Origin: Bdellovibrionales bacterium GWB1_55_8
Lineage (GTDB): Bacteria; Bdellovibrionota; UBA1018
Length of the DNA: 64,000 nt
NCBI GenBank assembly: GCA_001769835.1
Contig: MEPR01000039.1
Span: forward strand, 56,101 to 120,100
Direction of reading: 5' to 3'
Made by a program: the position numbers and the translations under genes. Below the pieces are notes generated by a model. That model searched no databases, was not told the DNA's origin, and was given only the letters and a program-made list of their open reading frames with translations. Positions 26,834 to 43,082 of this stretch are shown here, one piece after another; the stretch's first letter is position 1, and each line of letters opens with the position of its first letter.

Positions 26834-28117
26834 TTAACCACGTTTGAGGTTAATCACTTCCTGCATCATCTCGTCAGCCGTGCTGACCACCTTGCTGTTC
26901 GCCTGGAACGCGCGCTGCGCGGTCATCATGTTGATGAACTCAGTCGCGATATCCGTGGTCGAGGATTCGATGGTCTTCGAAGACACGCGGCCACGGCCGC
27001 CCGTGGACGGCGCACCGATTGTCGGCTGACCGGAGAGTCGGCTTTCGCGATAACGGTTCTGACCGTTCTTGAAGAGGCCTTCCGGGTTTTCGAATTTCGC
27101 AAGCGAGATCTGCGCCAGATTGATGGTCTGACCATTCGTGTAAATGGCGGAAAGATTTCCGTCATCATTGAAGGTAAGACCTGCAAGAGTACCAGCAGTG
27201 AAGCCGTCCTGCAGTGTTTTGTAAGCTTCGGAAGCGGTACCGTACTGCGTGACCTGGAGGCCGGGGCCGCCATTATTCTTGTCTTCACCGAAATTGAAGC
27301 GGATCTCCTGGTCCGGAAGAGCTCCCTTGTTGAACTGGAAGCTGGAATTTTCCGTGATCTGCTCCTTCAGGCGTCCGTCGTTGTCAAACAGCAGTTTTCC
27401 CCGTGCCTGCTCGAGCATCTCACCTTTTTTACCGCCGACGACCTCGTCGCCTTTGGCCATCGCGCGCCAAGTCCATTCACCGTCATCCGTTTTATTGAAA
27501 TAAACCGTGACCACATGGGCGGTACCAGCCGTGTCGTACACCGTGGCACCCGTCGCGAAATGCGAGGTCTGATCCGGGCGTTTGGGATCGAACTTCAAAG
27601 AGACCTCAGCGCGAAGGTCGAGGTTCATGAATAAATCCACATCCGTCGTCTTCTTCGCGTCGACCACAGTGCGGTTGACCGAAATATCACCCATTTTGGA
27701 GGTGATTTTGCCATCCTCATCGGCCATGAAGCCCTGCACCTTGAAGCCGTCCGCATTGATCAGCTTGCCATCCTTGTCGAAATGGAAGGCACCGTTTCGG
27801 CTGAAGCTCTGCCCATCCACACCTTCGAGCACGAAGAAGCCGTCGCCGGTGATGGCGAGGTCGGTGGACGATTCAGTCTGCACGATCGACCCCTGCGAGA
27901 AAACCGGATTAACCGCGGCGAGCCGGGTTCCGCGGCCGATCTGATTTCCGCCGAGAAGACCTTTCAAGGATTTTGCGATCACGTCCTGGAACTCGGGACG
28001 GCTTGTCTTGAAGCCGACCGTGTTCGCATTTGCAATGTTGTCACCGTAGATGGCGAGAGCTTCGCCCTGACCCTGCAGACCCGTGATACCCGTATACATT
28101 GAAGAGAGAATACCCAT
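26834..28117 (-). CDS. flgE: Flagellar hook protein FlgE
   Basis: N-terminal flagellar-rod domain (…SSMYTGITGLQGQGEALAIYGDNIANANTVGFK…) and C-terminal conserved …STADEMMQEVINLKRG. Start placed at MGILSS, while the ORF track extends to 28141. Confidence 0.85.
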   Translation of the reverse strand: MGILSSMYTGITGLQGQGEALAIYGDNIANANTVGFKTSRPEFQDVIAKSLKGLLGGNQIGRGTRLAAVNPVFSQGSIVQTESSTDLAITGDGFFVLEGVDGQSFSRNGAFHFDKDGKLINADGFKVQGFMADEDGKITSKMGDISVNRTVVDAKKTTDVDLFMNLDLRAEVSLKFDPKRPDQTSHFATGATVYDTAGTAHVVTVYFNKTDDGEWTWRAMAKGDEVVGGKKGEMLEQARGKLLFDNDGRLKEQITENSSFQFNKGALPDQEIRFNFGEDKNNGGPGLQVTQYGTASEAYKTLQDGFTAGTLAGLTFNDDGNLSAIYTNGQTINLAQISLAKFENPEGLFKNGQNRYRESRLSGQPTIGAPSTGGRGRVSSKTIESSTTDIATEFINMMTAQRAFQANSKVVSTADEMMQEVINLKRG

Positions 28118-28227
28118 AAAGAAACGCCTCCATGCGTTCATGAATTAAGGTTTTACCAGCCCGTCAATCAATCGGGGCCGGCTAGGCTTCCCTTATGGGT
28201 CCAGCCTATATGTGGCAATCCGCCACG

Positions 28228-28653
28228 CTAAACGATCACTGCTCCGTCAATATTCGTGAACACGTTGCCCGACATCGAATTCTTGTCGAGTGCCGTGATC
28301 ACAGTTCGGTTCTTCACGCTGACTATCAACGCCGCATCCGGCGTCAACACGAGCGTGTCTCCAAGACCCTTTGCATCAGCCTTATCCACGGCATTGCTGA
28401 CTTTCGCCATCATCGCCGGGTCCAGTTTGATATTTCGTTCGCGTAGTCTCTGCGTCGCATGCGCCGAGAATTTCAGCGGCGCCCGCATCTGGTCCAGTTC
28501 GGGCTGCGCGGAAGTCCCGAGAGTATTCTCGAGAACGCGATCGAATTCTCCTTTTACCGCGTCATTTTTCCTGGGTAGCCGGTCCGATTGTCCGATACCG
28601 GACTGCCCGGGCAATGAGGTCACATTGGGGTAAAGAAATGGTCCACTGCTCAT
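28228..28653 (-). CDS. Small 'flagellar operon protein' found between flgD and flgE in Firmicute- and spirochaete-type operons; function unknown
   Basis: 141-aa ORF tightly packed between flgD and flgE. Assigned by position and size only. Confidence 0.4.
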   Translation of the reverse strand: MSSGPFLYPNVTSLPGQSGIGQSDRLPRKNDAVKGEFDRVLENTLGTSAQPELDQMRAPLKFSAHATQRLRERNIKLDPAMMAKVSNAVDKADAKGLGDTLVLTPDAALIVSVKNRTVITALDKNSMSGNVFTNIDGAVIV

Positions 28654-29756
28654 CCGTTTTCTCCTCCTTTCTCATTTATGGGTGGTTGCTGGTCATCTGA
28701 ATCCTGTAAACCGTTCGGGAATCCCCGCTCTGAGTCCGCCGGCGCTGCCTGTCCTGCTCTCGCCTCGGACTGCTGAGACTGGAACTGCTGAAGCGCGGCT
28801 TTCGCTTCTGGAGAAAGCTGCTCCTGCGAGAGGTTCGAAGAACCCACGCCCTTCTGGAATGAGATGAAATTGTTTCCGCCGAACTGGGGCTGCACGGCTT
28901 GCATGCCCTGAACAACCTGGGGCGCGGCACCCGGCGCCTGCGGTCGAGACATCGGATTTTGAATGGCGCCAGAGGAATCATCGATCTGAATGACATTCTT
29001 GAGCGTGATTTTTTCCTGGCGATTGCGATCTCCGACAAGAAATACGGGCTCACTCCCCTCAAAACTCACGCCAACAACCTGCGCGCGAGTACGTGATGAA
29101 GTTTCAACCGACTGTCCGGCGGCGTTCTTCGCGTCGACGCGGAACATATAGGTTCCGGATTTCGCCGCGAGAGTGTTCACTTTTTTGCCATCCCAGTTGA
29201 AGCTCACGAGCCCGGCCTTCTGCTGCCCAAGATCCTTCGCGAGAACTGTTTCGCCCGCGTCATTGATGATCGCGACACTCACCTCCGTCGCATCCGACGG
29301 CAATGAGAACGAAACGAGGGAGTTACTGCCCTCGGTATGAGGGAAACGCTCGCGATCGATGGTGACCGTCTTTCCGATCATGTTCGTCATCGCAAGGCGT
29401 TCGAGCGGTTGATTCTGTCCCGCCATTTTCTGGAAATTCTGATTCAGGTTCTGAAGCTGCTCGACTGACGCGAACTGCGCCATCTCCGCGGCCATCTGCT
29501 CCGGCTTGAACGGATTCGTCGGATCCTGATAACGCATCTGCGTGACCATGATCTTCATGAAATCATCTTTGCCGAGAGTTTTCTTAATTTCCCGCTGCGG
29601 TTTTGGTTTCGCGCCGTATTGTGACTGAATCTTCTCGAGGACATCGCCGAATTTCGGCGCAGTGGAAGGATCTTTCATTTCCTGCTCGAGCATCTGCCCG
29701 CGACTTGGCTGAATCGCCGTCTCCGTCGCGGTTTTTGTGATGCTCATTCCTTCCAT
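28650..29756 (-). CDS. flgD: Flagellar hook capping/assembly protein FlgD
   Basis: Conserved FlgD N-domain (…LGKDDFMKIMVTQMRYQDPTNPFKPEQMAAEMAQFASVEQLQNLN…) and a FlgD Ig-like domain (…GTYMFRVDAKNAAGQSVE…). Q/P-rich C-terminal extension. Confidence 0.8.
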   Translation of the reverse strand: MEGMSITKTATETAIQPSRGQMLEQEMKDPSTAPKFGDVLEKIQSQYGAKPKPQREIKKTLGKDDFMKIMVTQMRYQDPTNPFKPEQMAAEMAQFASVEQLQNLNQNFQKMAGQNQPLERLAMTNMIGKTVTIDRERFPHTEGSNSLVSFSLPSDATEVSVAIINDAGETVLAKDLGQQKAGLVSFNWDGKKVNTLAAKSGTYMFRVDAKNAAGQSVETSSRTRAQVVGVSFEGSEPVFLVGDRNRQEKITLKNVIQIDDSSGAIQNPMSRPQAPGAAPQVVQGMQAVQPQFGGNNFISFQKGVGSSNLSQEQLSPEAKAALQQFQSQQSEARAGQAAPADSERGFPNGLQDSDDQQPPINEKGGENG

Positions 29757-29844: not shown

Positions 29845-31407
29845 TTATGCCGTGACGTCAAGACGCCCACTTGCGGCAGCCGCGCGTGTTCTTGCGGCCG
29901 CGTTCCAACCTGCGCCCGCCGCCTGAGTACGTGAACCCGCCGAATCGGCACGGGCGTCCGCCCTGCCTTCCGACGACTGTTCGCGGTTCTGGCCCTTTTC
30001 CTGTCCCATCATGCTTCCCAGATCCTGGAAACCATGCTGGCCCTGCTGTCCCTGTTCGTTGCCTGAGTTCGAACTGAAGGAAGTCCCGTGTGAAGATCCG
30101 ACGGCCAACTCCACTTTTCCAAGGCTCAGATTCTGCGAAGCGAGGCTGTCCTTGAGGAAGTTCATGCTTTCCTCGATGACTTTCATCGCTTTATCGTCTG
30201 AAGCCTGGATCTGCAGACCCACCTCGGTCCCGCGCGTCACGACCCGGAGATGCAACTCTCCGAGATTTTCCGGTCTCAGTCGGATCCGGATTTCACCGCC
30301 GCCGTGGGCAGTCATATTCCGGATGTTCCCGCTGAGCCCCAGAAGCGTGTCCGAGGAAAGTCGATCCCGCGCCATTTCGCCTTTCGCGACGTGTGCCGTG
30401 AGCTCGACTGTTCCTGACTGAGACGTGTTCTCGGGCGAACCCGCCTGATGACCCAGAGAGGTCCCCATCAGTTCGGAAAAGCGGCTTTGCTCGCCGTTCT
30501 TTTCCGCTCCTCCGCGGATCATCTTGAGTTCGGGACGGATCCCCGCTCTCATCTGAGCCTGGGATCCGGCGCCGCCCTGTCCGGAATCACCGGAAAGCTG
30601 CGACTTCGCTCCCTTGACGCCCGCATTACGGACGGAATTCAGGGCGTTCAGAAACTCATCACCCGAAAGCTGGGTGGTCAGTCCCTTTTTCCCGCCTTCC
30701 GCCTTGTCGCGCTGACCCGTGATCGTCGGTTCGCCATGAAGGGAAACACCCTCCAAAGCGCCGTTCAGACCATCAGTCAACTTCTCGAGTCCCTCAGGCC
30801 CCGTGAAACCGGCTGCTTCCGCTCCCTGCATCTGCAAAGATTGCGGACCTGCATCGCCCCTCGTCTGAAGCGCGGCCGCATCGGCGGCCTTATCCATGAG
30901 CCCTTTCACCATTTCCGGTGTCAATTCGGGTTTGCTCTCTCCCGAAAACAAGGGCTGCAACTCCGGGCGCGGGTTTTCGAATCCTTCGAATACCCACTCC
31001 CCGCTCCAGGGTTTGAGTCCAGCGATAGCTGCCGCGGTACTCATACCGGCAGCCGATTTCTGGGCCAATTCCGATTTCGCAATGGTGGACTCGTGAAGTG
31101 CCGAGACCTTCCCGCCTTTTATAGCGGAAGCGGACTCGACGTTCACCAGCGTGGAAACTCCGACCTGCCCCGCATCATCGCCCAGGGCGACCAGCGCCTC
31201 GATATCGGACGCCTGGTCAGCGTTCGGCGTCGGGACTTCGGCCAAATTCGGATCCAGAGACAGCTCCGGGTTTGCCTGTTTGGCCACCACGGCTCCTGCC
31301 TGTACCAGCTCGAGAGCAAACTCTTCGCCCTTTTTGCTGCCCTTTTCGGACTTTTCCGCGTTTCCTTCCATTGCAATCGGTTTAGTGACATCAATTGCTT
31401 TGATCAT
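29845..31407 (-). CDS. fliK: Flagellar hook-length control protein FliK
   Basis: 520 aa, low complexity, with a C-terminal FliK domain (…GEIRIRLRPENLGELHLRVVTRGTEVGLQIQASDDKAMKVIEESMNFLKDSLASQNLSLGKVELAV…). Confidence 0.7.
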   Translation of the reverse strand: MIKAIDVTKPIAMEGNAEKSEKGSKKGEEFALELVQAGAVVAKQANPELSLDPNLAEVPTPNADQASDIEALVALGDDAGQVGVSTLVNVESASAIKGGKVSALHESTIAKSELAQKSAAGMSTAAAIAGLKPWSGEWVFEGFENPRPELQPLFSGESKPELTPEMVKGLMDKAADAAALQTRGDAGPQSLQMQGAEAAGFTGPEGLEKLTDGLNGALEGVSLHGEPTITGQRDKAEGGKKGLTTQLSGDEFLNALNSVRNAGVKGAKSQLSGDSGQGGAGSQAQMRAGIRPELKMIRGGAEKNGEQSRFSELMGTSLGHQAGSPENTSQSGTVELTAHVAKGEMARDRLSSDTLLGLSGNIRNMTAHGGGEIRIRLRPENLGELHLRVVTRGTEVGLQIQASDDKAMKVIEESMNFLKDSLASQNLSLGKVELAVGSSHGTSFSSNSGNEQGQQGQHGFQDLGSMMGQEKGQNREQSSEGRADARADSAGSRTQAAGAGWNAAARTRAAAASGRLDVTA

Positions 31408-31413
31408 ATGCTT

Positions 31414-32058
31414 TTACCTCCTTTCTTTATGCGTGGTCACTGCAGCGTCACTCGACGCATCGGTACCCCGCTCTTTTGGAGCGGAATCGTTGGCCCGGAC
31501 CACTCCGGCCAGAAGTTCTGTCAACCGCGACGACTTCGCGGGATCCATAAGATTCATGATCTTTGCTAAACGCTGCGTCGAAATCCGCGACATGGCCGAA
31601 ACCGCGAGCGTCTCATCAAGCGAGGTCAGAAGCTGCGACGCCGCTTTCGGGCTCATCGTCTCGAAAGTCTCCACCAGCTTGTTCACGCGTTCGTCGTTCT
31701 CGGACTTGCGGGATTCCTGCACCTTCGCAAGCTCCTTGCGTATTCCATCAAACTTCTTCAGCTCCTCCGCGATCGCGTCCTCGCGCGCCTTGAACTCCGC
31801 TTCCTTGGCAACAAGATTGCGTTCGCGCACCTGAAGAGCCTCGCGCTGCTTGCGCAGATCCTCGATCACCGAAGGATCCGTCAGGCATGCGCCCGACGCT
31901 GAGCTGGAAATATTCGTTTCCGTAGTGTCGCCCCCGGAACTCTCAGCTGCACCCGCCGACCCAGCCGCTGAAGGAGCCGGGGTCTCTGCACTTGCGAGCA
32001 CCGTCATGACGGCGGCAGCGAGAAACACCATGACTGCAAGCGTTCTGAGGAGTCTCAT
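31414..32058 (-). CDS. MotE/FlbB/YlxF-like flagellar protein (MgtE-N-like domain)
   Basis: Signal/TM N-terminus, coiled coil and an MgtE_N-like C-terminus (…LLTSLDETLAVSAMSRISTQRLAKIMNLMDPAKSSRL…). Sits between fliJ and fliK, as ylxF does in Bacillus. Confidence 0.5.
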   Translation of the reverse strand: MRLLRTLAVMVFLAAAVMTVLASAETPAPSAAGSAGAAESSGGDTTETNISSSASGACLTDPSVIEDLRKQREALQVRERNLVAKEAEFKAREDAIAEELKKFDGIRKELAKVQESRKSENDERVNKLVETFETMSPKAASQLLTSLDETLAVSAMSRISTQRLAKIMNLMDPAKSSRLTELLAGVVRANDSAPKERGTDASSDAAVTTHKERR

Positions 32059-32510
32059 CCGACAGCCCTCTCCTTCAGGCGATCTCTCATGACCGACATG
32101 TCGTCGAGCAGCTTCTGCTCGCGCTTGCTCTGCATCTTTCGAAATTCAGCATGCTCGCGGTCGTACAGCGACTCCATCATGCGAGTCTGACGCCGCGTAT
32201 GAAGAAAATACTTCAAAGCCTTTTCGACCGCGCGACTCGCGCGCATGATATCGCGGTCAGCGCGCACGATCCGATGTTTCGTTCCTGCGATGAATTCGTC
32301 CTCAAGCTGGAAGGAAAGAACGCCGATTGGTTCGATACCAAGATTCTCACGGCGGATCAGCGCATTCTGAAGTTCGGAAACAAGACGTCCCTTTTTCGAG
32401 AGCTCTTCCTGATAAGCCCGTTGCGCATCACCCAACGCACGAAGAGCCTCCTCTTCGCGGCTTTTGCGCAGATTCAATACAGTGGCCAGTCTGAATCGGA
32501 AGCGTCTCAT
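32055..32510 (-). CDS. fliJ: Flagellar export chaperone FliJ
   Basis: About 150-aa all-helical protein starting MRRFRFRLATVLNLRKSREEEALRAL (FliJ-type). Start placed at ATG 32510 rather than the ORF-track TTG at 32522. Confidence 0.65.
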   Translation of the reverse strand: MRRFRFRLATVLNLRKSREEEALRALGDAQRAYQEELSKKGRLVSELQNALIRRENLGIEPIGVLSFQLEDEFIAGTKHRIVRADRDIMRASRAVEKALKYFLHTRRQTRMMESLYDREHAEFRKMQSKREQKLLDDMSVMRDRLKERAVG

Positions 32511-32609
32511 GTCTAAGATCAATTCTGATCTTGAGGCTCACCGCCCGCTAGACTGAATGTTTTGCCGCATGAAGGGGCACCACTGCTGCCGAGTGGAAAA
32601 AAGTGCCGA

Positions 32610-33173
32610 TCAGAGTGCGCGGCTCTTCAAGCCCGGCGGCCCCACTCCGTTTGAAATGACTTGAAACGGATCCCAGCTCCCGGACCAGAGTCCTTTCGAT
32701 TCAAGGAAATTCTTTGTAAAATACTCGGTTACGCGTTTGAACTCGTGGCCCCAACTTATAATCCTGGAATAAAGAGTACGGTCCCAGAACCTGCCCTTCG
32801 CGTTCGTCTTGCGGGCTCCCATGATCTGAAAGGCCAGCGCTCCTGAAAACTCCCTGAGGAAGCCCTGAAAATTCCGCTTCGCGGAAACGAAGCCCTTCGC
32901 GTCTGCTTTCACGAGCAAATGCAGGTGATTTCCCACGTTTACAGATCGATACACGCGGATCCTGTAGCGCCGGGCGCAGTCGGCCAACAGGTGTTCGAAC
33001 AATTTTGCATTCTCGCGGGTCAGAAGAGACCACTTCCCTTGCGCGCGGCTGGACCGCAGGACGAGATAGATCGGGTGCTTATGGCTGAACGGACGAGCCA
33101 CCTTTCTTCGCCCCTGACGTACCCCTCCCCCATGCTCGAGACGAAGGGATGGCAGAAATGAAGCCTGTTTCAT
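32610..33173 (-). CDS. tnpA: IS200/IS605-family Y1 HUH transposase (TnpA/RAYT-like)
   Basis: HUH motif NHLHLLVKA plus a C-terminal RAYT-like FWDRTLYSRIISWGHEF (catalytic Tyr region). Start at MKQASFLP (33173). The ORF-track start at 33284 would read through the upstream palindrome. Confidence 0.75.
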   Translation of the reverse strand: MKQASFLPSLRLEHGGGVRQGRRKVARPFSHKHPIYLVLRSSRAQGKWSLLTRENAKLFEHLLADCARRYRIRVYRSVNVGNHLHLLVKADAKGFVSAKRNFQGFLREFSGALAFQIMGARKTNAKGRFWDRTLYSRIISWGHEFKRVTEYFTKNFLESKGLWSGSWDPFQVISNGVGPPGLKSRAL

Positions 33174-33174
33174 G

Positions 33175-33192
33175 ACCGGATATATATCCGGT
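33175..33192 (-). promoter_or_regulatory. 18-bp perfect palindrome ACCGGATATATATCCGGT, 2 nt upstream of the tnpA ATG. Likely the IS200-type left-end hairpin, which would occlude the RBS.
   Basis: Seen directly in the sequence. IS200 elements carry such hairpins, serving as TnpA recognition sites and translational repressors. Confidence 0.5.
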
Positions 33193-33376
33193 TCAGTTAA
33201 CCGTGTAAAGACGTTTGTTACGGGTGAACGCTGGGGCAATGGTATTTTGATCGTACAAACACTGATGGAAACAAGGTCTGTCACATCTATTCTGCTAACT
33301 GACCCTGGATTTTTCTCGACCTTGTCAAAGCGCCATGAAAGCCGATGCTGTCGCGGAGCCTTTCAATAGGTAAGCT

Positions 33377-33577
33377 TCAGTTTTTGCGATCACATAAGTC
33401 TTGAGCATTCGGCTCATTTTTTCGGCAGACATTATCGATCGTGTCCCAGCAACCACCCGAGTCCAGACACGAGTCCTGCTTCATCCACGTACATGCATTC
33501 AGAGCAGATACCAGGAGCAAGCATGCTGAGATCAGCATCATCGAGAAAAGCCGTCCGTTCGCCCTACTCCGGGTCAT
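33377..33577 (-). CDS. Small secreted Cys-rich lipoprotein, 66 aa with 7 Cys
   Basis: Signal peptide plus lipobox (LLVSALNAC), then a Cys-rich mature peptide CTWMKQDSCLDSGGCWDTIDNVCRKNEPNAQDLCDRKN. Overlaps the start of the upstream kinase gene by 4 nt. Confidence 0.4.
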   Translation of the reverse strand: MTRSRANGRLFSMMLISACLLLVSALNACTWMKQDSCLDSGGCWDTIDNVCRKNEPNAQDLCDRKN

Positions 33578-34071
33578 TCAAAGGCCTTCTTCTTGATCAG
33601 ATCAGCGATCTCGTCCGGACTCATGTTGTCGGTCTTGATCTCAAACCCAAGCGCACCGTTCAAAAATCTTCCTCTCTGATTTCGTTCCACTTCCTGGGTT
33701 TCAGAAACTTCCCTCTCGGCTTGCGGTCGTCCACGTTTCAGAATCCGAGCGGAGAGACTCCGAGTTTCAGCTGAAAGATAGAACACACGGGCAGGCTCGC
33801 CCACTCTCTGAATGAAATCTTCCATCAGGTCAGGACTCAAAAACAGGCTATCGAATACGATCGTCCTTGCGCCCAGGCGGCGATAAGCGCTGATCAGATC
33901 ACAGGCGACATTCAAGGCAAGTTTCTGTCGCGACTGCGTGGCAATCAAATTATCCGAAACGAACCCGAGAACGTCGCCTTCAATATACGCGGCATCGTCC
34001 AACTGGCATAGCAGAGTCCTTGCCACCCAGGTTTTTCCAACGCCCACGGTGCCGTTTACGATGATGAGCAT
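33574..34071 (-). CDS. Small P-loop kinase (AAA_33/gluconokinase-sized NTP-binding protein)
   Basis: 165 aa with Walker A NGTVGVGKT at residues 6-14 and a Walker B-like hydrophobic strand plus D (IVFDSLF). Confidence 0.55.
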   Translation of the reverse strand: MLIIVNGTVGVGKTWVARTLLCQLDDAAYIEGDVLGFVSDNLIATQSRQKLALNVACDLISAYRRLGARTIVFDSLFLSPDLMEDFIQRVGEPARVFYLSAETRSLSARILKRGRPQAEREVSETQEVERNQRGRFLNGALGFEIKTDNMSPDEIADLIKKKAFE

Positions 34072-34197
34072 GTCTCAATCGTAAGTAGCGGCAGCCCGCC
34101 CGTCGAGCTAAAAAATACCGGAGCTCCATGCGAAAACATCGAAGTAAGAATCGCCGATGTCTTCGCATGAAGTTCCGGGTTCGAATTCACTGCAGTC

Positions 34198-34653
34198 CTA
34201 TTCGGACTTCTGTTGTACACATCTGATGTTCTGCTGATCGACTGTTTCAATGAACTCATCCACAAGGTCTTCGAGGTGTGAAACGATCTTGTGCCGAAGG
34301 TCAGGAGTGTCATCGAAGTACCTTACTTTTTTCCCTCGATCAGAAAGCGTGCTGAATACCGTCACGCCATTCGATTTCACGGCCTTAAGCCAGATTCTGT
34401 TCCTGAAAAAACTGGCACAAGACACCACGCCGCACTTTGCAAGCCCGGTCCACCCTGTGTAGTAATCCGTCTCAAGGAATATATGAGCAGGCACTCCCTG
34501 CGGCACCACATGATAGCCCTTCGTTAACAAGTGTTGCTGAGCCCATGTGTCATCGGTTGAGATCGTGCAGTTTAACGATGGACCGTCTTTCGCGTACGCT
34601 GATGAGACCGCGACCAAGCAGATTCCAACGATAGCCATAATTTTGCCGTTCAT
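34198..34653 (-). CDS. Hypothetical secreted protein
   Basis: Signal peptide MNGKIMAIVGICLVAVSSAYA. 4 Cys in the mature part. Low local GC. Confidence 0.4.
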   Translation of the reverse strand: MNGKIMAIVGICLVAVSSAYAKDGPSLNCTISTDDTWAQQHLLTKGYHVVPQGVPAHIFLETDYYTGWTGLAKCGVVSCASFFRNRIWLKAVKSNGVTVFSTLSDRGKKVRYFDDTPDLRHKIVSHLEDLVDEFIETVDQQNIRCVQQKSE

Positions 34654-34888
34654 ATGTTCTCCATTTTCTTCTTCCGGTTCAGCCCGGAAGCGAAAACGAG
34701 AATACGCCGCAATAGTCCAGGTCTCCGCTGACATCCTCTGACGTAAAGTAACATACGGAATTCACGAAAGAATCGCGATTCCTGCCGACCCTGCTCTACT
34801 TCGGCGCACCCTTGAAATTATCGGCCGGCTATGAGCATATGGCCCTCGTCGACTTGCACAATTCCAAACTTTTAGCGTCTCTATCGAG

Positions 34889-36268
34889 GTGATCCGGATG
34901 AGAGCTTTGTTCATCACACTTCCATTTCTGTTCATCGGCATAAACTCGGCCACTGCCGATGTTCTTCCGATTCAGGCAAACTACGTTTCGACGCGGGCCC
35001 AGGAAGGAATCATGTCTTTCGACCATTTCGTCGAGTTCAACGCGGATGCGAGGCAATCCGACACGGCACTTCAGGGCTGGGCGCGGCAGGCGATTGAAAA
35101 GCAGCTCATGTTTCTGATCGGTTCAATGAGGTGGCACTTCTCCGTTCCGAAGGGCGATCACAAAATCACGGAGCTGCGCCTTGCCCCGAAAAGCGCACAG
35201 GGTGTGACGATGATCGCCTCTTACCATTACGAGGGAACCGTTCAGATCCGCGAGGACGTACCCCTTCCGCTCAGGCTCGTGCTTCCGAATAACCCCTATC
35301 GGTTTTACTGGGACGGTCTCGTGCGAGATGGCTTCAAAATAAGCGCGCCTTGCACGCAGAAGCATTATCGTTGGCCGAGCGACCTGTTTTATTTCTGGCA
35401 CCCTTACGCTCCCGCGTGTCCATGGAAACGCGGCGAGGACTACCAGGAGATCCAGCCTGAAATCGTTTTAAAAAATAACGACGAAACGACCTATCCGGAA
35501 TACGACCGGCTTGTCGACCCCGCCACCCGTACGATCTCGATGTGGATACTTGTCGGACCTGCCAGCAACAAATCCATGAATCCGATGACCTCTCCTGATA
35601 TCAATGCGCAGACTTTCTGTGAATTCCGGGAACATTTCCTGCGTAAGGGATTTTCTTCACGGCGTTGGACCTCCAAAGAAATCCGCAGGAAGGGGAACAC
35701 CCTCTTCGCGAAACTCCCTTGGGTCGAGGATTTCGAAAAACAAGGCGCCCGATCCCGTATCCTGATCCACGCATTCTATGGCCATACCGCGGTGAAGGAT
35801 TTCAGCCGCGCTTTTTACCACTTTCTTGAGGACGGGGTCGAGAACGCCTCAATGGTGGTGTACGCAGGACATGCAGGATTGGGCAAAACCCTTGCACCTT
35901 CCGTAGCGGAAAAGATCGGGCTACTCAGGATGCGACCCAATCGGGATCGCTACCAGATCTATTTCTTCAACGGATGCAGCACTTACGCTTATTACACGCA
36001 ACCCTACTTCACGCGTAAAGCGAGCGCTTTGGATCCAGAAGGCACAAAGAACCTCGACATCATCACAACCGGCCTGGCCACAGGCGAGGACTTCCTCGGG
36101 AGTAGTTCACTCGCCGCGATCGATGCTGTGACGGACTGGGCTGATGGCGGTGCTGCCGCAAGTTATCAGGAAATCCTGAAACGCGCAGGTGGTTCCAATT
36201 TGCTGAGCGTCAGCGGAGATGAAGACAATCCGTCATCTCCGCAAAAACCCTTCCAAACGCGCGATTAA
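34889..36268 (+). CDS. Secreted protein with a putative clan-CD (caspase/clostripain/gingipain-like) cysteine peptidase His-Cys dyad
   Basis: Signal peptide (LFITLPFLFIGINSATA). The C-terminal half has a hydrophobic strand plus GH (MVVYAGHAGLG) followed ~40 aa later by a hydrophobic strand plus xC (QIYFFNGCSTYAYY), the arrangement typical of CD-clan peptidases. Confidence 0.4.
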   Translation: MIRMRALFITLPFLFIGINSATADVLPIQANYVSTRAQEGIMSFDHFVEFNADARQSDTALQGWARQAIEKQLMFLIGSMRWHFSVPKGDHKITELRLAPKSAQGVTMIASYHYEGTVQIREDVPLPLRLVLPNNPYRFYWDGLVRDGFKISAPCTQKHYRWPSDLFYFWHPYAPACPWKRGEDYQEIQPEIVLKNNDETTYPEYDRLVDPATRTISMWILVGPASNKSMNPMTSPDINAQTFCEFREHFLRKGFSSRRWTSKEIRRKGNTLFAKLPWVEDFEKQGARSRILIHAFYGHTAVKDFSRAFYHFLEDGVENASMVVYAGHAGLGKTLAPSVAEKIGLLRMRPNRDRYQIYFFNGCSTYAYYTQPYFTRKASALDPEGTKNLDIITTGLATGEDFLGSSSLAAIDAVTDWADGGAAASYQEILKRAGGSNLLSVSGDEDNPSSPQKPFQTRD

Positions 36269-38455
36269 CAGGTCTAAAATCGAAATTCTATCCTTTGAGA
36301 CTGGCTCCCCGATTCTCCCCTTTTCGAGTTCCGCAAGCTCCCGCGCCTTCAATGTACGAACCGCCTGCTCGGCTTTCGATCGATCGCTGGCAAGCGCCGC
36401 TTCAGCGGACTTGGCAAGAGCCGTATCCGATTGGATCAATTCCTTTTCCCGTCTGAGCTCATCGTCTGAAGGCACCCGCCTTGTTCTGAATTCTGGTTCT
36501 GCGGGAAGTGTAAGTTCCACTTTACTCAGCCAGACGTCAGAAGGAGCACCGGTTCTCGCAGAAGGAGCGAGACAACTTGGGTCTGCGGAGAAAATATTGA
36601 AACTCAGGAAACTTCGATCGGGGGAAAGCGACATCTGAACGTCCAGCTTCGCGTCCCGATGTGATGCAAGCCACAGGGATTTCGGTGTTCTTGAGAAAGA
36701 CGATTTGCAGTTCCTGAATTGAATGGTGCCACTCCACGAGTCAGGTTTGATGGTCAGATCAGCACTGAAATCGCGGCGCGATACCTGGACCTTCACCACA
36801 CCAGCAGCGGCATCGCAGTTCACCTTGAGTTTCACATCAGCAAATTTTTGGCCGTTCGGAACTTCCCCGGCGGAAGCATAATGGGCGATCTCCGGCTTCT
36901 TCGGATCAAAGTCGCGTCTCTCAATCCGCACCTTCTTGGGATGTCCTTTTTTATCGAAAAGGTCAGGATCAGAACAGTAGAGCCTGTAAATCTCTTTCGC
37001 ATCGCGAGATTTCAGACCCCGCGATTTTATGAGATCCGGGAAACGCATACCGGCGGTTTGGATGACTCCGGAAATATCCTCGATCGACTCCGCGCGAATG
37101 ACACCGCCCCCTTCTTTTCGGATAGCCAGATAGACGTTCCCTAGCGAGTCTTTGATTCCGGTTTCCTTGCACCCAACATGACTGCGGTAGAGGCTGAAAT
37201 ACGGGGAGTTATAGTAACCCTCCTTCGCTATACCGCCGACATCACCACCGCCGCCTTTGCCGACATCACCACCGCCGCCTTTGCCGACATCACCACCGCC
37301 GCCTTTGCCGACATCACCACCGCCGCCTTTGCCGACATCACCACTGAACCTCAGTCCAGATGACGAATCCACAAACGGACTCGGACACACGGATTGAAAC
37401 CGTTCCGTAGTAGCGCCGACACGAAAAGTGATCTCGGGCGTGCCCACAGCTCCACCTGGTGTTTGTGTCACCGTCCGGTCGTAGTAATACGGAGACCCTT
37501 CTGCTTTCGAGACATCAAGCCCATTCATGAGCCCTGGAAGGGCCTCATTGATGGTCTCGATCGGAACCGCGACGGACTGGGTTTCGTTCAAGAACGTCTT
37601 CAGAAGTATTCCAGAGAGGAAAGTTTTCGATTCGAAGATCTCACTGGTTCCGCTTCGGGGTACCAAAACGGTGTAAATAATCGGACTGCCACTCATGCCT
37701 GGCCGGACACCCTGCTTCGGCAATAGGACTGCGCTCCTACTCCCGATAAGCGGATGCTCTGCAGCTTGGGTCGCGAGCTCGATTTGCACGGGAAAACGAT
37801 TGGGGATCACCTTCAATCCATCTTCAGTCACTCGTGCGAGATGCAGATTTTCCCGATTGACGAAATCCGCCGCTGTTTGGATGTAATGGCTGCCTTCTGG
37901 CAGCCAGTTTTCGCGATTAATGGGAAGCAGGTGGCGAACTTCAGCCACGGGCAGTTTGAAACCATCCCAAACAAATAAGGGCGTCAGGTCCGAAACAATC
38001 TTCTCTAATTCCAGGACCGCGAGATCCTTCGTCTGGCTGATACCGCGAACTTTTGCCTGAACAACTTTCCCCCCGCAGCGGACCTGGACCTTTTCGGCGC
38101 CTGCGACCACGTGTGCGGCGGTCAAAACGAACAGATGTTTTGGTTCATTGGCCGATTTAAAGACAGAGCCTTGCCCAATCGAGGACAGCGAGTCTTTACC
38201 GGACTGCCTCTGCCCCTCGATCTCGACTACTTCGCACCGGTCCAGAACCGGGGCGTTGTTCGCGATTCGATCCAGCCATCTCACCAGCTCCGGCTCAAGG
38301 AGCGCCTCGCCTGACAAGCCACTATTGCAACAAGGGTCCGCAGTCACTGGCGAAGATGAGCCAGACAAAGCCATTGCAGGGATCATCGATCCCGCGACGC
38401 CGAAGAGAATAGTGAGCACTCGCAGTGGAAAACTGCACATCGTTCGTTTATTCAT
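36233..38455 (-). CDS. Large secreted trypsin-like (S1 family) serine protease with an internal (GDVGKGGG)n tandem repeat and a C-terminal coiled coil
   Basis: Signal peptide MNKRTMCSFPLRVLTILFGVAGSMIPAMA. Catalytic His (VLTAAHVVAG), Asp (KDLAVLEL) and Ser (GMSGSPII) in S1 order. Repeats GDVGKGGG ×4.5, then …ELRREKELIQSDTALAKSAEAALASDRSKAEQAVRTLKARELAELEK. Start chosen at the signal-peptide Met. Confidence 0.6.
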   Translation of the reverse strand: MNKRTMCSFPLRVLTILFGVAGSMIPAMALSGSSSPVTADPCCNSGLSGEALLEPELVRWLDRIANNAPVLDRCEVVEIEGQRQSGKDSLSSIGQGSVFKSANEPKHLFVLTAAHVVAGAEKVQVRCGGKVVQAKVRGISQTKDLAVLELEKIVSDLTPLFVWDGFKLPVAEVRHLLPINRENWLPEGSHYIQTAADFVNRENLHLARVTEDGLKVIPNRFPVQIELATQAAEHPLIGSRSAVLLPKQGVRPGMSGSPIIYTVLVPRSGTSEIFESKTFLSGILLKTFLNETQSVAVPIETINEALPGLMNGLDVSKAEGSPYYYDRTVTQTPGGAVGTPEITFRVGATTERFQSVCPSPFVDSSSGLRFSGDVGKGGGGDVGKGGGGDVGKGGGGDVGKGGGGDVGGIAKEGYYNSPYFSLYRSHVGCKETGIKDSLGNVYLAIRKEGGGVIRAESIEDISGVIQTAGMRFPDLIKSRGLKSRDAKEIYRLYCSDPDLFDKKGHPKKVRIERRDFDPKKPEIAHYASAGEVPNGQKFADVKLKVNCDAAAGVVKVQVSRRDFSADLTIKPDSWSGTIQFRNCKSSFSRTPKSLWLASHRDAKLDVQMSLSPDRSFLSFNIFSADPSCLAPSARTGAPSDVWLSKVELTLPAEPEFRTRRVPSDDELRREKELIQSDTALAKSAEAALASDRSKAEQAVRTLKARELAELEKGRIGEPVSKDRISILDLLIARLEGFLRR
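37222..37345. repeat. Perfect 24-bp tandem repeat (GACATCACCACCGCCGCCTTTGCC) ×4, plus one partial copy at each end (about 5.3 copies), in-frame within the S1 protease gene
   Basis: Seen directly: …gccgacatcaccaccgccgcctttgcc ×4 …gacatcaccactgaa. Encodes GDVGKGGG units on the minus strand. Confidence 0.9.
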
Positions 38456-38534
38456 CGGCATAACCTGGTGACTTCCTAAGTATTCTTTGTCTGCTTGCCG
38501 ATAAGAGTCCTGGAGGGCTCCCGGGAGCTGCGTC

Positions 38535-39728
38535 ATGAAACATAAATACGGCTCTACTGCTCTGAACAAGAGCCCAACACTGAGGAGCAGCGAACTTTCG
38601 GCGATCTACTACTCGCTGGTCGAGATGATCTTGCAAGGCCGCTATGAAGCAACGGCGGAAGCCCTGAACCAACTTCGTCGTGGAAGCCCGTTCACGCATG
38701 ACGATAACGAAGCTATTCGCAGATTGATTGCCGCGCGCCTCGCGATAAAACAAGGCGATGCTGGTGAGGACACATCCTGGCTGGATATTCCAGTTCCGGA
38801 GAATTCCTGGCTTGCTGCTGAAAAGGAAATTGTAAAAGGTCATTGGGAGTATCACCTGCAGAACTTTCCGATGGGCATCACGCACTTTAAGGAGGCGGAG
38901 CGCCAATTCAAAAACCTGGGAATGCTCGATCGGGAGTTCCTCAGCGCTTTCAATCAAATCATCGGCGAAGTCAGTGGCCCCTCTCAGCTCCCCCCCCTTC
39001 AGCAGATCGATCAGCTTCGGCAGTTGGAGATCCGAGTCCGACAGCACCTCGAGAAAGTGGGCTGCGTGCGAGTTCAGGCGCTGATTCATCGACAAAAATC
39101 TCACGCATTTGAGGACCTGACCCTGTTCCACGCGGCGGTGGAAGAGATATCAAAAGCGATACAAATACTGGAGCTTCACGGGCCAGCCTCGGACTATCAA
39201 CTGGCCCTGCTTCAGGCTGCCGACCTGAGCCTGGATTTAGGTGACCAGTTCCGGGGTCGCACCTTTTTCGAATACGTCATTCCACCGCTCGATAAGAGAG
39301 TTGAATTTCCTCATGCCTACATAGCCTGGCGATTGGGCGGACCGCTTCCCGAGCAATCCAATTTTGAAATCCTGCCCGGCGGATGGAAGGAAAAGTTCGA
39401 GAAATTGAGAGCATCCCTCACTCCCGATAACAGTACTCCTCACGAATGGACCTGGAATCTCACCTCAGGTGAGATTCAAAGCCCTGAGCTTCTCAAACCC
39501 ATTCAACTCAAACCAGCAAGCCTGGAAGGGCGCCTCGTACAGATGTTGACCCGCAACAAGGCAACGAAGAACCTTCTAATTGAATCTTTCTGGCCCGGGC
39601 AAAGCGACAGACAGTTACTGGACAACCGCCTGCACAGGATGATCTCCCGCTTGAACAAAAAGTTGTCGAACCTCATCGAGTTTGACGGGAAAAGTTATCG
39701 TCTCAAGCGGCGATTACGGACTAAATGA
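38535..39728 (+). CDS. Atypical transcriptional regulator: N-terminal helical/TPR-like domain and C-terminal OmpR/PhoB-type winged-helix DNA-binding domain, with no receiver domain
   Basis: C-terminus …LEGRLVQMLTRNKATKNLLIESFWPGQSDRQLLDNRLHRMISRLNKKLSNLIEFDGKSYRLK matches the trans_reg_C pattern (LT..E..LL..L…vWg…..ld..i.rLRkKL…i.tvrg.GY.L). Divergently transcribed from the protease gene. Confidence 0.5.
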   Translation: MKHKYGSTALNKSPTLRSSELSAIYYSLVEMILQGRYEATAEALNQLRRGSPFTHDDNEAIRRLIAARLAIKQGDAGEDTSWLDIPVPENSWLAAEKEIVKGHWEYHLQNFPMGITHFKEAERQFKNLGMLDREFLSAFNQIIGEVSGPSQLPPLQQIDQLRQLEIRVRQHLEKVGCVRVQALIHRQKSHAFEDLTLFHAAVEEISKAIQILELHGPASDYQLALLQAADLSLDLGDQFRGRTFFEYVIPPLDKRVEFPHAYIAWRLGGPLPEQSNFEILPGGWKEKFEKLRASLTPDNSTPHEWTWNLTSGEIQSPELLKPIQLKPASLEGRLVQMLTRNKATKNLLIESFWPGQSDRQLLDNRLHRMISRLNKKLSNLIEFDGKSYRLKRRLRTK

Positions 39729-39799
39729 AAGAAATGCCGCCACTCTTCTTCTCGAAGAGGGCGGCATTCTCATGAACGGCTAAATAAACTCCTAGAGCA

Positions 39800-40642
39800 T
39801 CAAAGGACTGAGTCGGAACCCGGAACGCTGACACCCGCTTTGGTGAAATAGGCCTGAAAATCAGCTTCAGAGACTTCCTCGCCGTTGATTTCATACTTGG
39901 TTTCTGTTCCATCGAAGGACTGTTTCAACTCCGCCGAAAAATCCGCATACTCAAGTTTGAGGGCCACGGAGCCGCTGCCATCGGCCTCTGTGCTGCTGAA
40001 TTCCATTTCCACATCGGCTTGCAGTTCGAATTTCACATCACCCTTGGTCTGCGAGTGGACATCGCCCTTAACCTCGCCCTCGATCACGATCGAACCACCG
40101 CTCGTGGAGGTCGTTGCTTTGACTGCGATCTCGCCCGAAAGGTCGAACTTGTCGACATCGTTCAGCTTGCGGAATTCGTCGTCTTTCACTTCGTATTTCA
40201 GCGTGGCGGCGACCTTGGCTTCCGTTTCGCTGCCTGAGCCCTTCATTTCGATATTCATCGAAATCGGGCAGGACACATCAGGCTTGTCGGAAACCTGAAT
40301 TTTGATATTGAAGCTGGTGGCGCTCGTCGAAACAGGTACCGAATAGTCCACCTGACAAAGTTCGTCTGCCAGCTTCTCCTGCATTTCAATGGTGGTGGGA
40401 TCCGTCGTGAGCGCTGCCGAACGTGATCCAGCCGTGCCACTGAGAAAGGACAGCGCATGGAACCGGTTCACAACAGGAAGGGCGAGCGTTGCCGGCGCGC
40501 CAGGAACCGATTGATGAGTGCGGCCCGCGCTTTCGATTGTTGCCGACACGATGGCCTTCTGCTCATCTGTCAGCTTCTTTTGTCCACAACCAGTCACGAC
40601 GAGTGCCATCAGCACGGATACAAGCACAAATGCGTTTCTCAT
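39800..40642 (-). CDS. Hypothetical lipoprotein
   Basis: Lipobox LMALVVTGC. S/T/E/K-rich repetitive beta-rich mature domain. Confidence 0.5.
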   Translation of the reverse strand: MRNAFVLVSVLMALVVTGCGQKKLTDEQKAIVSATIESAGRTHQSVPGAPATLALPVVNRFHALSFLSGTAGSRSAALTTDPTTIEMQEKLADELCQVDYSVPVSTSATSFNIKIQVSDKPDVSCPISMNIEMKGSGSETEAKVAATLKYEVKDDEFRKLNDVDKFDLSGEIAVKATTSTSGGSIVIEGEVKGDVHSQTKGDVKFELQADVEMEFSSTEADGSGSVALKLEYADFSAELKQSFDGTETKYEINGEEVSEADFQAYFTKAGVSVPGSDSVL

Positions 40643-40803
40643 GAGATCTCCTTTTATTTGCAGGGATCATAAGGAAGGAAACGCAAATTCACAAGCTGAC
40701 GCTTCAGCGAAAGACGCATTCGCCTTACGTCTTATTCTGAAGTTATTCAGTTGACAGCCTTGAGCCGTAACCACTCACGGATGACAGTGGATGGATTCCC
40801 TGC

Positions 40804-42285
40804 CTATTTTTGCTTCTGCCCGGTCTGCTGTGCCGCGAAGGCGGCTTCCACGCTCCGGACAATCGAATAGAGCATCCCGGTGGCCTGATCGTAAGTCGTT
40901 CGTTCATCGATTCCCTGCCGGAGAAACGCATTGATCCGCTCGATCGCGAAAATCGCCTGATCGATCTTCGCATTGCTGCCTTTCACATAGGCTCCGATAT
41001 TGATCAGATCCTCGGCCTGCGCGTAGGCTGCCATCCATTCCCTGACCTGGCCTGCCCAGAGATTATGTTCCTTGCTGATCACCGAACGCATCACACGACT
41101 TGCGCTCTGAAGCACATCAACGGCCGGGTAGTGATTGCGTTGCGCGATCTTCCTAGAAAGGACGATGTGCCCGTCCAGAATGGACCGGACGGAGTCCGCG
41201 ATCGGATCATCCATGTCATCGCCTTCCACGAGTACCGTGAACAAGCCCGTGATACTCCCCTTTTTCGGCGCCATGCCGGCGCGTTCAAGAAGCTTCGGAA
41301 GGGTCGAGAACACACTGGGAGTGTAGCCCTTGGAAGCCGGAGGTTCGCCCATGGCCAGCCCGATTTCACGCTGGGCCATCGAGAAGCGGGTCACTGAATC
41401 CATGAGCATCAAAACGTCTTTGCCCTGATCCCGGAAATACTCCGCGATCGTCATTCCAAGGAAGGCCCCGCGCATGCGGAGAAGCGGCGAACGATCAGAG
41501 GTTGAAACGACGACGACCGAACGAGCCAAAGCTTCCGGCCCCAGGTCCCGTTCGATGAACTCCCGGACCTCGCGTCCGCGCTCGCCGATCAGCGCAATCA
41601 CGTTCACCTCGGCCGAGGTATGCCTGGCCATCATCCCTAGCAGGACGGATTTTCCGACACCCGAACCTGCCATGATCCCGACACGCTGGCCCTTGCCACA
41701 AGTCATCAGCCCATTGATGGAACGAATTCCGAGATCCAGGGGCTCGGTAATCATTTCACGCTCGAGAGGATGGGATGGAACCTGGTACAGGCTCCGCTCC
41801 TCCAGCCATTCGCCACGTGAAACCAGCGGTCCCTTGCCGTCGATTGGAACGCCCTTTCCATCGATCACACGGCCGAGAAGCGCGTTTCCAACCGGGACCG
41901 TGGATTTATTCTTTCGAAGAACGACCAGGCTGTCGTTATGGACACCTGAGGCATCTTCAAAGGGCATCAGAAGAACACGCTTGTCGCGAAACCCGATCAC
42001 CTCGGCATCAACGCCTTCGTCCGCTCCTGGTTCGCTTGAGCTGAGAATGCGACAAAGACTTCCGACCGCTGCACCGGGCAGATGCGCCTCGTAAATGAGA
42101 CCAAGAGACTTGGTCACTTTACCGGCATGATTGTAGAGAAGCGTGTGTTTGAGCCGATCCTCGTACTTCGCGGAATCAATCTCCCAGGTCACGTGGTCTC
42201 GCTCCCATGCTCTGTCGAACTGGCGAAGAGAGCCGAGGAGATGCTCTGAAGCTGCGCCTCGACGCTTGCGTTGATCGCGTTCCAC
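40804..42285 (-). CDS. fliI: Flagellum-specific ATP synthase FliI
   Basis: Walker A GSGVGKS, Walker B …VLLMMDSVTRFSMAQREIGL… and an F1/T3SS ATPase fold. The ORF-track start overlaps fliH by 97 nt, so the true start is probably an alternative codon near 42190-42200. Confidence 0.9.
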   Translation of the reverse strand: MERDQRKRRGAASEHLLGSLRQFDRAWERDHVTWEIDSAKYEDRLKHTLLYNHAGKVTKSLGLIYEAHLPGAAVGSLCRILSSSEPGADEGVDAEVIGFRDKRVLLMPFEDASGVHNDSLVVLRKNKSTVPVGNALLGRVIDGKGVPIDGKGPLVSRGEWLEERSLYQVPSHPLEREMITEPLDLGIRSINGLMTCGKGQRVGIMAGSGVGKSVLLGMMARHTSAEVNVIALIGERGREVREFIERDLGPEALARSVVVVSTSDRSPLLRMRGAFLGMTIAEYFRDQGKDVLMLMDSVTRFSMAQREIGLAMGEPPASKGYTPSVFSTLPKLLERAGMAPKKGSITGLFTVLVEGDDMDDPIADSVRSILDGHIVLSRKIAQRNHYPAVDVLQSASRVMRSVISKEHNLWAGQVREWMAAYAQAEDLINIGAYVKGSNAKIDQAIFAIERINAFLRQGIDERTTYDQATGMLYSIVRSVEAAFAAQQTGQKQK

Positions 42286-43082
42286 TCGGTTTCAATGACG
42301 CACCCGCCGAGTTTCACCTGATCAGAAGGCTCGACACTCAGATTCTTGAGATTGCCCAGGGACTGTTCCAGCCCCCGCTTCACCATTTCGGCTGTTTCCG
42401 CATCCTGCTGACTGATATGAATCTTTATGTTCTCGCGTACGCCCACCTTCTCGATCAGTTCGCGTGCCAGGCGCAGCACGTACTCCCCGTCCGTGCTCAT
42501 TTCCCGCAACAGCACCATCCGTCCGATGCGATAGACCAGATCCAGAAGAAACTTCTCGTTCGCGTGATAAACCTGCTCTTTCGCGCCCTCGAATTCCGCG
42601 ATCATCTTCGAAAAGGAGCCGAGACGTTCCTCACCCTCACGCTGAAATTTCGTGAAGGCCTCATGATATCCCTTCTTCAGACCTTCCTCGTAACCCTGCG
42701 CTGAGGCGTTCACACGCGCCTCATCAGCCATGGCAGCGACCCGAGCGCGCACTTTCTCGTCGATGACCCGGCGCTCCTCCTCCTCGATGGAAAGAGGATC
42801 CCTGAGCAGTGAGTTCAGCTTGAAACGGCTGTCTTTCTGCGCCCTGCCCGCCCTTTCGGGATCCGTCACAGCGAGGGCTCCGAATTTCTTCTTTACGTCT
42901 GCGTAGTTCCGGTTCCCGGGCTCGGAAAGCGCCCCGAACTCAAACGATTTGACAACAGTCTTTTCAGCCTCGCCTCCGAGCTTCACCACCCGAGGTTCAG
43001 TTGCGGTGCCTGCGTCCTCCTTGATCTTGATACCGGAATTCTTCTGGGAAGACGGCGGTACATGGGGCGTGAATTTCGACAT
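42189..43082 (-). CDS. fliH: Flagellar assembly protein FliH
   Basis: 297 aa with FliH/YscL-type motifs (…YEEGLKKGYHEAF…, …KLGGCVIETEWNAINASVEAQL…). Sits between fliG and fliI. Confidence 0.7.
   Translation of the reverse strand: MSKFTPHVPPSSQKNSGIKIKEDAGTATEPRVVKLGGEAEKTVVKSFEFGALSEPGNRNYADVKKKFGALAVTDPERAGRAQKDSRFKLNSLLRDPLSIEEEERRVIDEKVRARVAAMADEARVNASAQGYEEGLKKGYHEAFTKFQREGEERLGSFSKMIAEFEGAKEQVYHANEKFLLDLVYRIGRMVLLREMSTDGEYVLRLARELIEKVGVRENIKIHISQQDAETAEMVKRGLEQSLGNLKNLSVEPSDQVKLGGCVIETEWNAINASVEAQLQSISSALFASSTEHGSETT

Follow-up and report, generated by a model that had tools for sequence, protein, structure and literature searches.

A stretch of 64,000 nucleotides of contig MEPR01000039.1 from Bdellovibrionales bacterium GWB1_55_8 (hereafter, the window) contains a gene for a 459-amino-acid protein. 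We propose, with a probability of about 0.8, that this protein is an exported two-domain cysteine endopeptidase in an unclassified clan CD family, which it either founds or belongs to. According to this proposal, it would be exported by the Sec pathway and its signal peptide then removed. Catalysis would take place in the C-terminal α/β domain (residues ~213-450), in which the nucleophile would be Cys363, terminating the strand YQIYFFN. The general base/acid would be His328, which is flanked by invariant glycines and closes the neighboring strand MVVYA; gingipain R, separase, and the caspases work in the same way. For the ferredoxin-like domain at the N-terminus (residues 33-212), we propose that it is an integral accessory domain, which may contribute to substrate recognition or to regulation of the enzyme. 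Residues are counted from the GTG start of the open reading frame (ORF), and the coordinates of all features are collected in Table 1.

Candidate catalytic dyad and predicted fold

A preliminary description of the window, made from its sequence, had listed this ORF, which is real, and had noticed a possible caspase-like His-Cys dyad in its C-terminal half. Both motifs quoted there were found in the protein: MVVYAGH328AGLG and IYFFNGC363, the latter being part of YQIYFFNGCSTYAYY. The two catalytic candidates are 35 residues apart, close to the spacing of about 40 given in that description, and this value falls in the range of clan CD, where caspase-7 has a spacing of 42 and PmC11 of 46 residues (PMC4357240). 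For gingipain R (RgpB), we counted 33 residues on the protein sequence.

The conservation of these positions was analyzed in an alignment of 38 diverse family members and in a larger set of 244 full-length members, some of them only ~25% identical. Both His328 and Cys363 are invariant in the smaller alignment. In the larger set, His328, Cys363, and Gly327 are each kept in 243 sequences, Gln356 in all 244, Gly332 in 242, and Gly330 in 237. The (near-)invariance of the two residues, their flanking glycines, and Gln356 suggests that selection acts on catalysis. An alternative explanation would be an inert caspase-fold scaffold or binding protein comparable to the pseudo-protease domains of Raptor or c-FLIP, in which His and Cys are functionless. 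The retention of both residues in 243 of the 244 members, including the window copy, together with the (near-)invariant glycines and Gln356, makes such a protein highly improbable. The sole dyad-less member, P0217 (451 amino acids), carries Pro in place of His328 and Ser in place of Cys363, so that both residues are missing. This double loss may mark a pseudo-enzyme derivative, or it may stem from a sequencing artefact.

The family consensus reads Y-D-G-H-S-G-L-G at the His motif and Y-Q-I-Y-F-F-N-S-C-S-S-Y-x-Y-Y at the Cys motif. Further near-invariant features are the T-Y-P-E-Y..R-L motif at the domain junction, Asp237, Lys377, and G-T-K-N-L-D at residues 385-390. After the last β-strand, most members carry a G-D-E-D-N-P motif, beyond which the tail is short and variable. 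To our knowledge, this motif has no counterpart among those of clan CD; it may bind a metal, contribute to the wall of the active site, or serve as a site of processing.

An AlphaFold2 model based on the 38-sequence alignment was obtained with a mean predicted local distance difference test score (pLDDT) of 86.7 and a predicted template modeling score of 0.84. This confident model displays the clan CD fold, an α/β fold for which a central, mostly parallel β-sheet (order 2-1-3-4-5-6) is characteristic and which is recognized by superposition on known members of the clan. By definition, the His and the Cys of a clan CD dyad lie at the C-terminal ends of β3 and β4, respectively (PMC4357240). In the DSSP string of the model, G327-H328 and a helix come after strand 322-326, and G362-C363 come after the next strand, 356-361. 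Both residues are thus located where they are expected, just after the ends of consecutive strands.

Structural comparison gave the highest score for human separase (10.5), followed by gingipain R (4ief_B; 10.0), the separases of C. elegans, yeast, and Chaetomium (9.9, 9.7, and 9.2), and Lys-gingipain (9.2). Lower scores were obtained for SAVED-CHAT (8.7), TPR-CHAT (7.8), metacaspase-4 and -9 (7.6 and 7.5), caspase-8 (7.5), legumain (7.0), and the C11 proteases (6.4-6.9). A Foldseek search against the PDB also identified separases, at a probability of 0.97-0.99 and E ~4e-3. The preliminary description had compared the protein with caspase, clostripain, gingipain, and legumain peptidases. Its assignment to this fold holds, but the nearest structures are those of separase and gingipain and not those of caspase or legumain. 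Neither outcome named there as contradicting the assignment, a predicted structure lacking this fold or a His and Cys away from the expected strand ends, was observed.

Four independent sequence comparisons, all of them sub-threshold, fall on the His-Cys segment. The Pfam model Peptidase_C25 matches residues 307-363 of family member P0007, which contain its His320 and Cys355 (E 0.01, 15.5 bits, cut-off 23), and Peptidase_C50 matches residues 292-371 of member P0157 (E 0.006, 16.2 bits, cut-off 27.8). The two other comparisons were profile alignments by hhalign. The C25 profile consisted of 21 sequences, namely RgpB (sequence as in 4ief_B, E 1e-242) and 20 of 29 collected C25 homologues. Its best local alignment with the family is weak (P 0.016, probability 2.9%) and places Y-A-G-H328 opposite Y-T-G-H211 and F-F-N-G-C363 opposite F-D-V-A-C244 of RgpB. 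A C11 profile, built from 20 neighbor genes of family members, aligned the cysteine of its D-A-C motif with Cys363 (P 0.038). Alignments of the family with the single sequences of caspase-3 and of one C11 neighbor were both insignificant. The protein is predicted to be an active peptidase.

Several observations weigh against this assignment. With none of the sequence methods was a significant match obtained, be it to a known family of peptidases or to a protein of solved structure, and the P-values of the hhalign comparisons are weak. Near the active center, the window protein deviates from the family consensus, with Ala329 and Gly362 in place of Ser, and it carries P-A-S after β1 where the family has M-D-[DE]. 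We found no description of the family in the literature on Bdellovibrio and no biochemical data for any member. Finally, the Foldseek matches in the PDB, in which small GTPases appear alongside the separases, are weak (E ~3e-3 to 2e-2). These GTPase matches could indicate a P-loop NTPase, all the more as G-H-A-G-L-G-K-T (residues 327-334; 35867-35890, + strand) conforms to GxxxxGK[ST], the pattern of a Walker A motif, within a strand-loop-helix arrangement. This pattern is present in only six of the 244 members, and Lys333 is not conserved in the family. Family conservation therefore effectively refutes the P-loop reading, to which we assign next to no probability, and the string is considered a coincidence of the window copy that probably accounts for the GTPase matches.

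Relation to known clan CD families

The presumed cysteine endopeptidase has the fold by which clan CD is defined, yet it stays below the sequence cut-offs of C25, C50, C11, C13, and C14, and is therefore best described as belonging to a new family within this clan. Searches of the window protein against Pfam, NCBIfam, and PADLOC returned no match, and Pfam found nothing above threshold in the 38 family members. The absence of a recognizable domain from the N-terminal half, reported in the preliminary description, is thus correct at the sequence level, and the C-terminal half is likewise not recognized by the sequence databases. Comparison with the sequences of PDB chains by a single-sequence search (phmmer), a full-length profile, and a profile of the catalytic domain only also gave no meaningful match. 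The top matches were only tRNA 2'-phosphotransferase and Rit1 (E 0.55-1.5).

Gingipains R and K (C25; 1CVR, 4IEF, 4RBM) are secreted bacterial proteins, as the window protein putatively is, and likewise carry G-H-x-G and x-x-C at the ends of consecutive strands. In contrast to them, the window protein does not match PF01364, for which even the best family member stays below the cut-off. The propeptide (PF08126) and the Ig-like domain (PF03785) of gingipains were detected in genuine C25 homologues and neither in the window protein nor in the 38 members. Instead, the N-terminal domain of the window protein is ferredoxin-like, and no other C-terminal domain is present. The family signature, consisting of the extended Cys motif, G-T-K-N-L-D, and the C-terminal G-D-E-D-N-P, also differs from gingipains, and gingipains occur in Bacteroidota, whereas this family is found in Bdellovibrionota and Elusimicrobiota.

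The likeness to separase (C50) is based on the Foldseek probabilities and on the sub-threshold Peptidase_C50 matches to the dyad segment. In addition, the separase motifs G-H-G-x-G and G-C-S-S resemble G-H-S-G-L-G and S-C-S-S of the family. However, the separases and CHAT proteases (SAVED-CHAT, TPR-CHAT/Csx29, DdvA) are large, regulated, cytoplasmic or nuclear proteins with helical or TPR/SAVED domains, in contrast to a putatively exported protein of 459 residues that lacks such domains, and no match to PF03568 or CHAT above threshold was obtained for the family. A defense-system or CHAT-type context was rejected because of the negative PADLOC result.

Members of the clostripain family (C11; PmC11, iotapain) are also secreted bacterial clan CD enzymes whose catalytic Cys was aligned by hhalign. 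They are structurally more distant from the window protein than C25 or C50, it does not match PF03415, and the D-A-C motif of C11 is replaced by N-[SG]-C in the family (N-G-C in the window protein). Caspases and metacaspases (C14) as well as legumain (C13) show lower structural scores, with only ~150-160 aligned residues, and no sequence-family match. Neither Q-A-C-x-G of caspases nor E-A-C of legumain is present, and nothing was found that would point to a specificity for Asp or Asn.

A clan CD fold with an active dyad would also be compatible with an enzyme that mainly acts as a transpeptidase or ligase, resolving the acyl-enzyme with an amine instead of water and thereby attaching or remodeling envelope or secreted proteins. 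Examples of such enzymes are the glycosylphosphatidylinositol transamidase, PorU, and legumain-type ligases. In the structural comparison, these enzymes are placed far behind the separases and gingipains, which are hydrolytic, and the neighborhoods of the family contain no conserved partner or sorting-signal system of this kind; where a conserved partner is present, it is a C11 protease (see below). We therefore regard a transpeptidase as improbable and favor the endopeptidase.

For this endopeptidase, some hints at substrate specificity were obtained. The sequence around the conserved Asp237 resembles G-E-S-D163-I of RgpB, and Asp163 of RgpB binds the P1 arginine (PMC4357240). A global hhalign comparison with C25, seeking the equivalent of Asp163, was uninformative. 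An alignment with a sub-profile placed Asp237 opposite Glu161 and Asn239 opposite Asp163 (P 0.11), in an ambiguous register. Most members carry acidic residues right after β1 (G-M-D-[DE]), where the window protein has G-P-A-S. Because of the ambiguous alignments, we make no firm call on specificity. By analogy to C11, C25, C14B, and C50 (PMC4357240), and based on Asp237, our low-confidence guess would be a strict P1 specificity, with Arg or Lys being likeliest.

Gene start, putative export signal, and N-terminal domain

Three in-frame start candidates lie within 18 nucleotides of each other: GTG 34889, ATG 34898, and TTG 34907. In the public NCBI record, this protein is called "hypothetical protein A2X94_06855" (P0001), with a start at TTG 34907 and a length of 453 amino acids. 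A Shine-Dalgarno-like sequence, GAGGTGAT, is located at positions 34886-34893, directly 5′ of ATG 34898, and this codon is therefore probably the true start rather than the annotated TTG. Starting at TTG 34907 would strip the positively charged n-region from the signal peptide. A scan for promoters and terminators around the gene yielded nothing above the shuffled expectation.

Translation from the ATG at 34898 gives MRALFITLPFLFIGINSATA|D as the N-terminus. Read directly, this sequence resembles a Sec signal peptide that would be cleaved after an A-x-A motif. Signal-like or lipobox-like N-termini were found in 211 of 241 homologues by a crude pattern count, and in the model, residues 1-4 and 16-32 have a pLDDT below 50. 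The protein thus appears to be exported, judging from its own N-terminus and the mostly hydrophobic or lipobox N-termini of its homologues, in agreement with the secretion originally proposed.

The fold of the N-terminal half is only generically ferredoxin-like, with a conserved pair of cysteines as an additional feature. Cys155 (35351-35353) and Cys177 (35417-35419) are invariant in the 38-sequence alignment and 98-99% conserved among the 244 sequences, and they probably form a disulfide. The strong conservation of this pair and of the motif at the domain junction suggests that the N-terminal half is a stable, disulfide-bonded accessory domain and not a cleavable propeptide.

Family distribution and genomic context

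A word-indexed search retrieved 169 relatives, none of which has a Pfam domain and all of which, where named, are called "hypothetical protein". When 1.84 billion cluster representatives were searched exhaustively with a profile, 1361 clusters reached E ≤ 1e-3, and 430 of them reached E ≤ 1e-30. The family therefore comprises at least 1361 sequence clusters (clustered at 50% identity), almost all of 430-480 amino acids and alignable from end to end. In a species-level genome collection, scanned with 12 closer sequences, all matches were metagenome-assembled genomes. They belong to the Bdellovibrionota (Bdellovibrionia, Bacteriovoracia, and Pseudobdellovibrionaceae) and, as a distinct subfamily, to the Elusimicrobiota. 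The source genome itself harbors at least one paralogue (P0003, 41% identity).

The window gene is located within a flagellar gene cluster that is otherwise canonical (fliF-G-H-I / fliJ-K-flgD-E; Table 1). Among metagenomic relatives, the closest ones (FliI identity 62-82%) have fliJ ~70-190 nucleotides after fliI, and the seven genes lying between the two in the window have no homologue in any of the 80 loci compared. The seven genes thus constitute an insertion, which has a G+C content of 0.52-0.54 compared to 0.55-0.59 in the flanks. Besides the peptidase gene, it contains an ORF with weak similarity to Y1 transposases, an AAA-type kinase gene, an S1 protease gene, and three ORFs without assignment. 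The transposase-like ORF may be related to the arrival of the insertion. The junction may be an insertion hot spot, because different inserts of 1-4 kb are located there in a few relatives (L093, L095-L097, L101). An Rfam search of the window between 30 and 42 kb found nothing.

Table 1. Features of the peptidase gene and its surroundings, in window coordinates.
Feature	Position	Strand	Basis
Peptidase gene, 459-amino-acid protein	34889..36268	+	ORF list; identical to A2X94_06855 record
Signal-peptide-like N-terminus (M)RALFITLPFLFIGINSATA, predicted cleavage after A-T-A (residue 23)	34889..34957	+	Direct sequence reading
N-terminal domain, residues 33-212; ferredoxin-like α+β core with Cys-containing insert, ending in conserved T-Y-P-E-Y..R-L linker	34985..35524	+	
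Conserved Cys155 and Cys177, candidate disulfide	35351..35419	+	Conservation
Predicted caspase-haemoglobinase-fold catalytic domain, residues ~213-450	35525..36238	+	
Asp237, N-terminus of first helix after β1; candidate S1-pocket or helix-capping residue	35597..35599	+	93% conserved
Y-A-G-H328-A-G-L-G, strand end and putative catalytic His (codon 35870-35872)	35861..35884	+	Conservation, model strand 322-326, RgpB alignment
Y-Q-I-Y-F-F-N-G-C363-S-T-Y-A-Y-Y, strand and putative catalytic Cys (codon 35975-35977)	35951..35995	+	Conservation, model strand 356-361, RgpB/C11 alignments
G-D-E-D-N-P motif, residues 443-448, after last β-strand	36215..36232	+	G443 98%; D444, E445, D446, N447 89-94% conserved
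Convergent secreted S1 (trypsin-fold) serine protease, 36-nucleotide overlap with the peptidase gene	36233..38569	-	Trypsin_2, 27.8 bits vs cut-off 27.6 (marginal)
Insertion of ~8.3 kb between fliJ and fliI, peptidase gene and six others	32523..40803	.	Pfam-identified flagellar genes, gene order of relatives, G+C content
Y1_Tnp-like ORF (IS200-like / REP-associated tyrosine transposase), fliJ-proximal edge	32610-33284	-	Sub-threshold, E 0.0063, 17.1 bits vs cut-off 23
FlgE	26834-28141	-	Pfam
FlgD	28650-29756	-	Pfam
FliK	29845-31407	-	Pfam
MgtE_N-like protein	31414-32058	-	Pfam
FliJ	32055-32522	-	Pfam
FliI	40804-42285	-	Pfam
FliH	42189-43082	-	Pfam
FliG	43107-44120	-	Pfam
FliF	44147-45847	-	Pfam

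The convergent neighbor, an S1 serine protease with the motifs TAAH153, D182LAVLEL, and GMS293GSP, overlaps the peptidase gene as first described. To find out which neighbors recur, 87 related loci were compared with the window. None of the 87 contains a homologue of the S1 protease next to the family member. The co-location noted in the preliminary description is thus present here but peculiar to this genome, and a functional pairing of the two proteases was rejected. The S1 gene itself contains a perfect 24-nucleotide tandem repeat (37235-37344, - strand; 4.6 copies, 100% identity), which encodes G-D-V-G-K-G-G-G four times. The identity of the copies suggests that this expansion is recent or variable in length.

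Only one partner of the family recurs, a gene of the Peptidase_C11 type (for L005:7310-8803, Pfam E 1.4e-22). In 24 of the 77 loci with enough downstream sequence, it directly follows the family member in the same orientation, usually overlapping it or lying within ~40 nucleotides of it. The overlaps often measure 3-79 nucleotides, and further examples are found in L024, L035, L036, and L042 around positions 5300-6815. These C11 genes are intact and have kept their own H-G and D-A-C motifs. In a neighbor-joining tree, the C11-linked members essentially form one large clade, and the window protein is a long branch outside of it; no C11 homologue is present in the window. The downstream C11 protease is therefore a candidate partner in one large clade of the family. 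Lipoprotein genes of the Lnb_N type (PF13387) were also observed at a distance of 1.5-6 kb from family members (L001 12447-13326, L003 8796-10670, L007 1-771). These are three unrelated contexts, one of them from Elusimicrobiota, and the proximity may reflect chance or a loose envelope-related association.

A more far-reaching scenario can be formulated from these data. The family could be an unrecognized separase/gingipain-like branch of clan CD that forms a secreted two-protease module with a co-transcribed C11 protease, one of them activating or processing the other. This module would be ancestral in the predatory Bdellovibrionota, and paralogues of the window type would later have been uncoupled from C11 and become mobile on small insertions, the window copy having ended up within the flagellar operon next to an unrelated S1 protease. 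We regard this scenario as tentative and rather unlikely. Based on taxonomy, export signals, and the linkage to C11, the role of the family would most plausibly be the digestion of extracellular or periplasmic proteins, including those of prey, or the processing of other secreted hydrolases. The members from Elusimicrobiota argue against a role strictly tied to predation.

Clan CD contains only a handful of families, several of them of medical or cell-biological importance, such as the caspases, separase, the gingipains, legumain, and the cysteine protease domains of clostridial toxins. The window copy itself is of modest significance, being one divergent, island-borne paralogue in a strain-specific insertion; it would represent a new branch of a known kind of enzyme and not a new kind of system. 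The family as a whole would add a new member to clan CD and to the degradome of the predatory Bdellovibrionota, whose hydrolases attract interest for antibacterial and biotechnological use. As compact and apparently exported bacterial proteins with separases as nearest structural neighbors, its members would bear on the diversification of the separase/CHAT/gingipain branch, and the recurrent operon with a C11 protease provides a direct hypothesis of a protease pair or an activation cascade.

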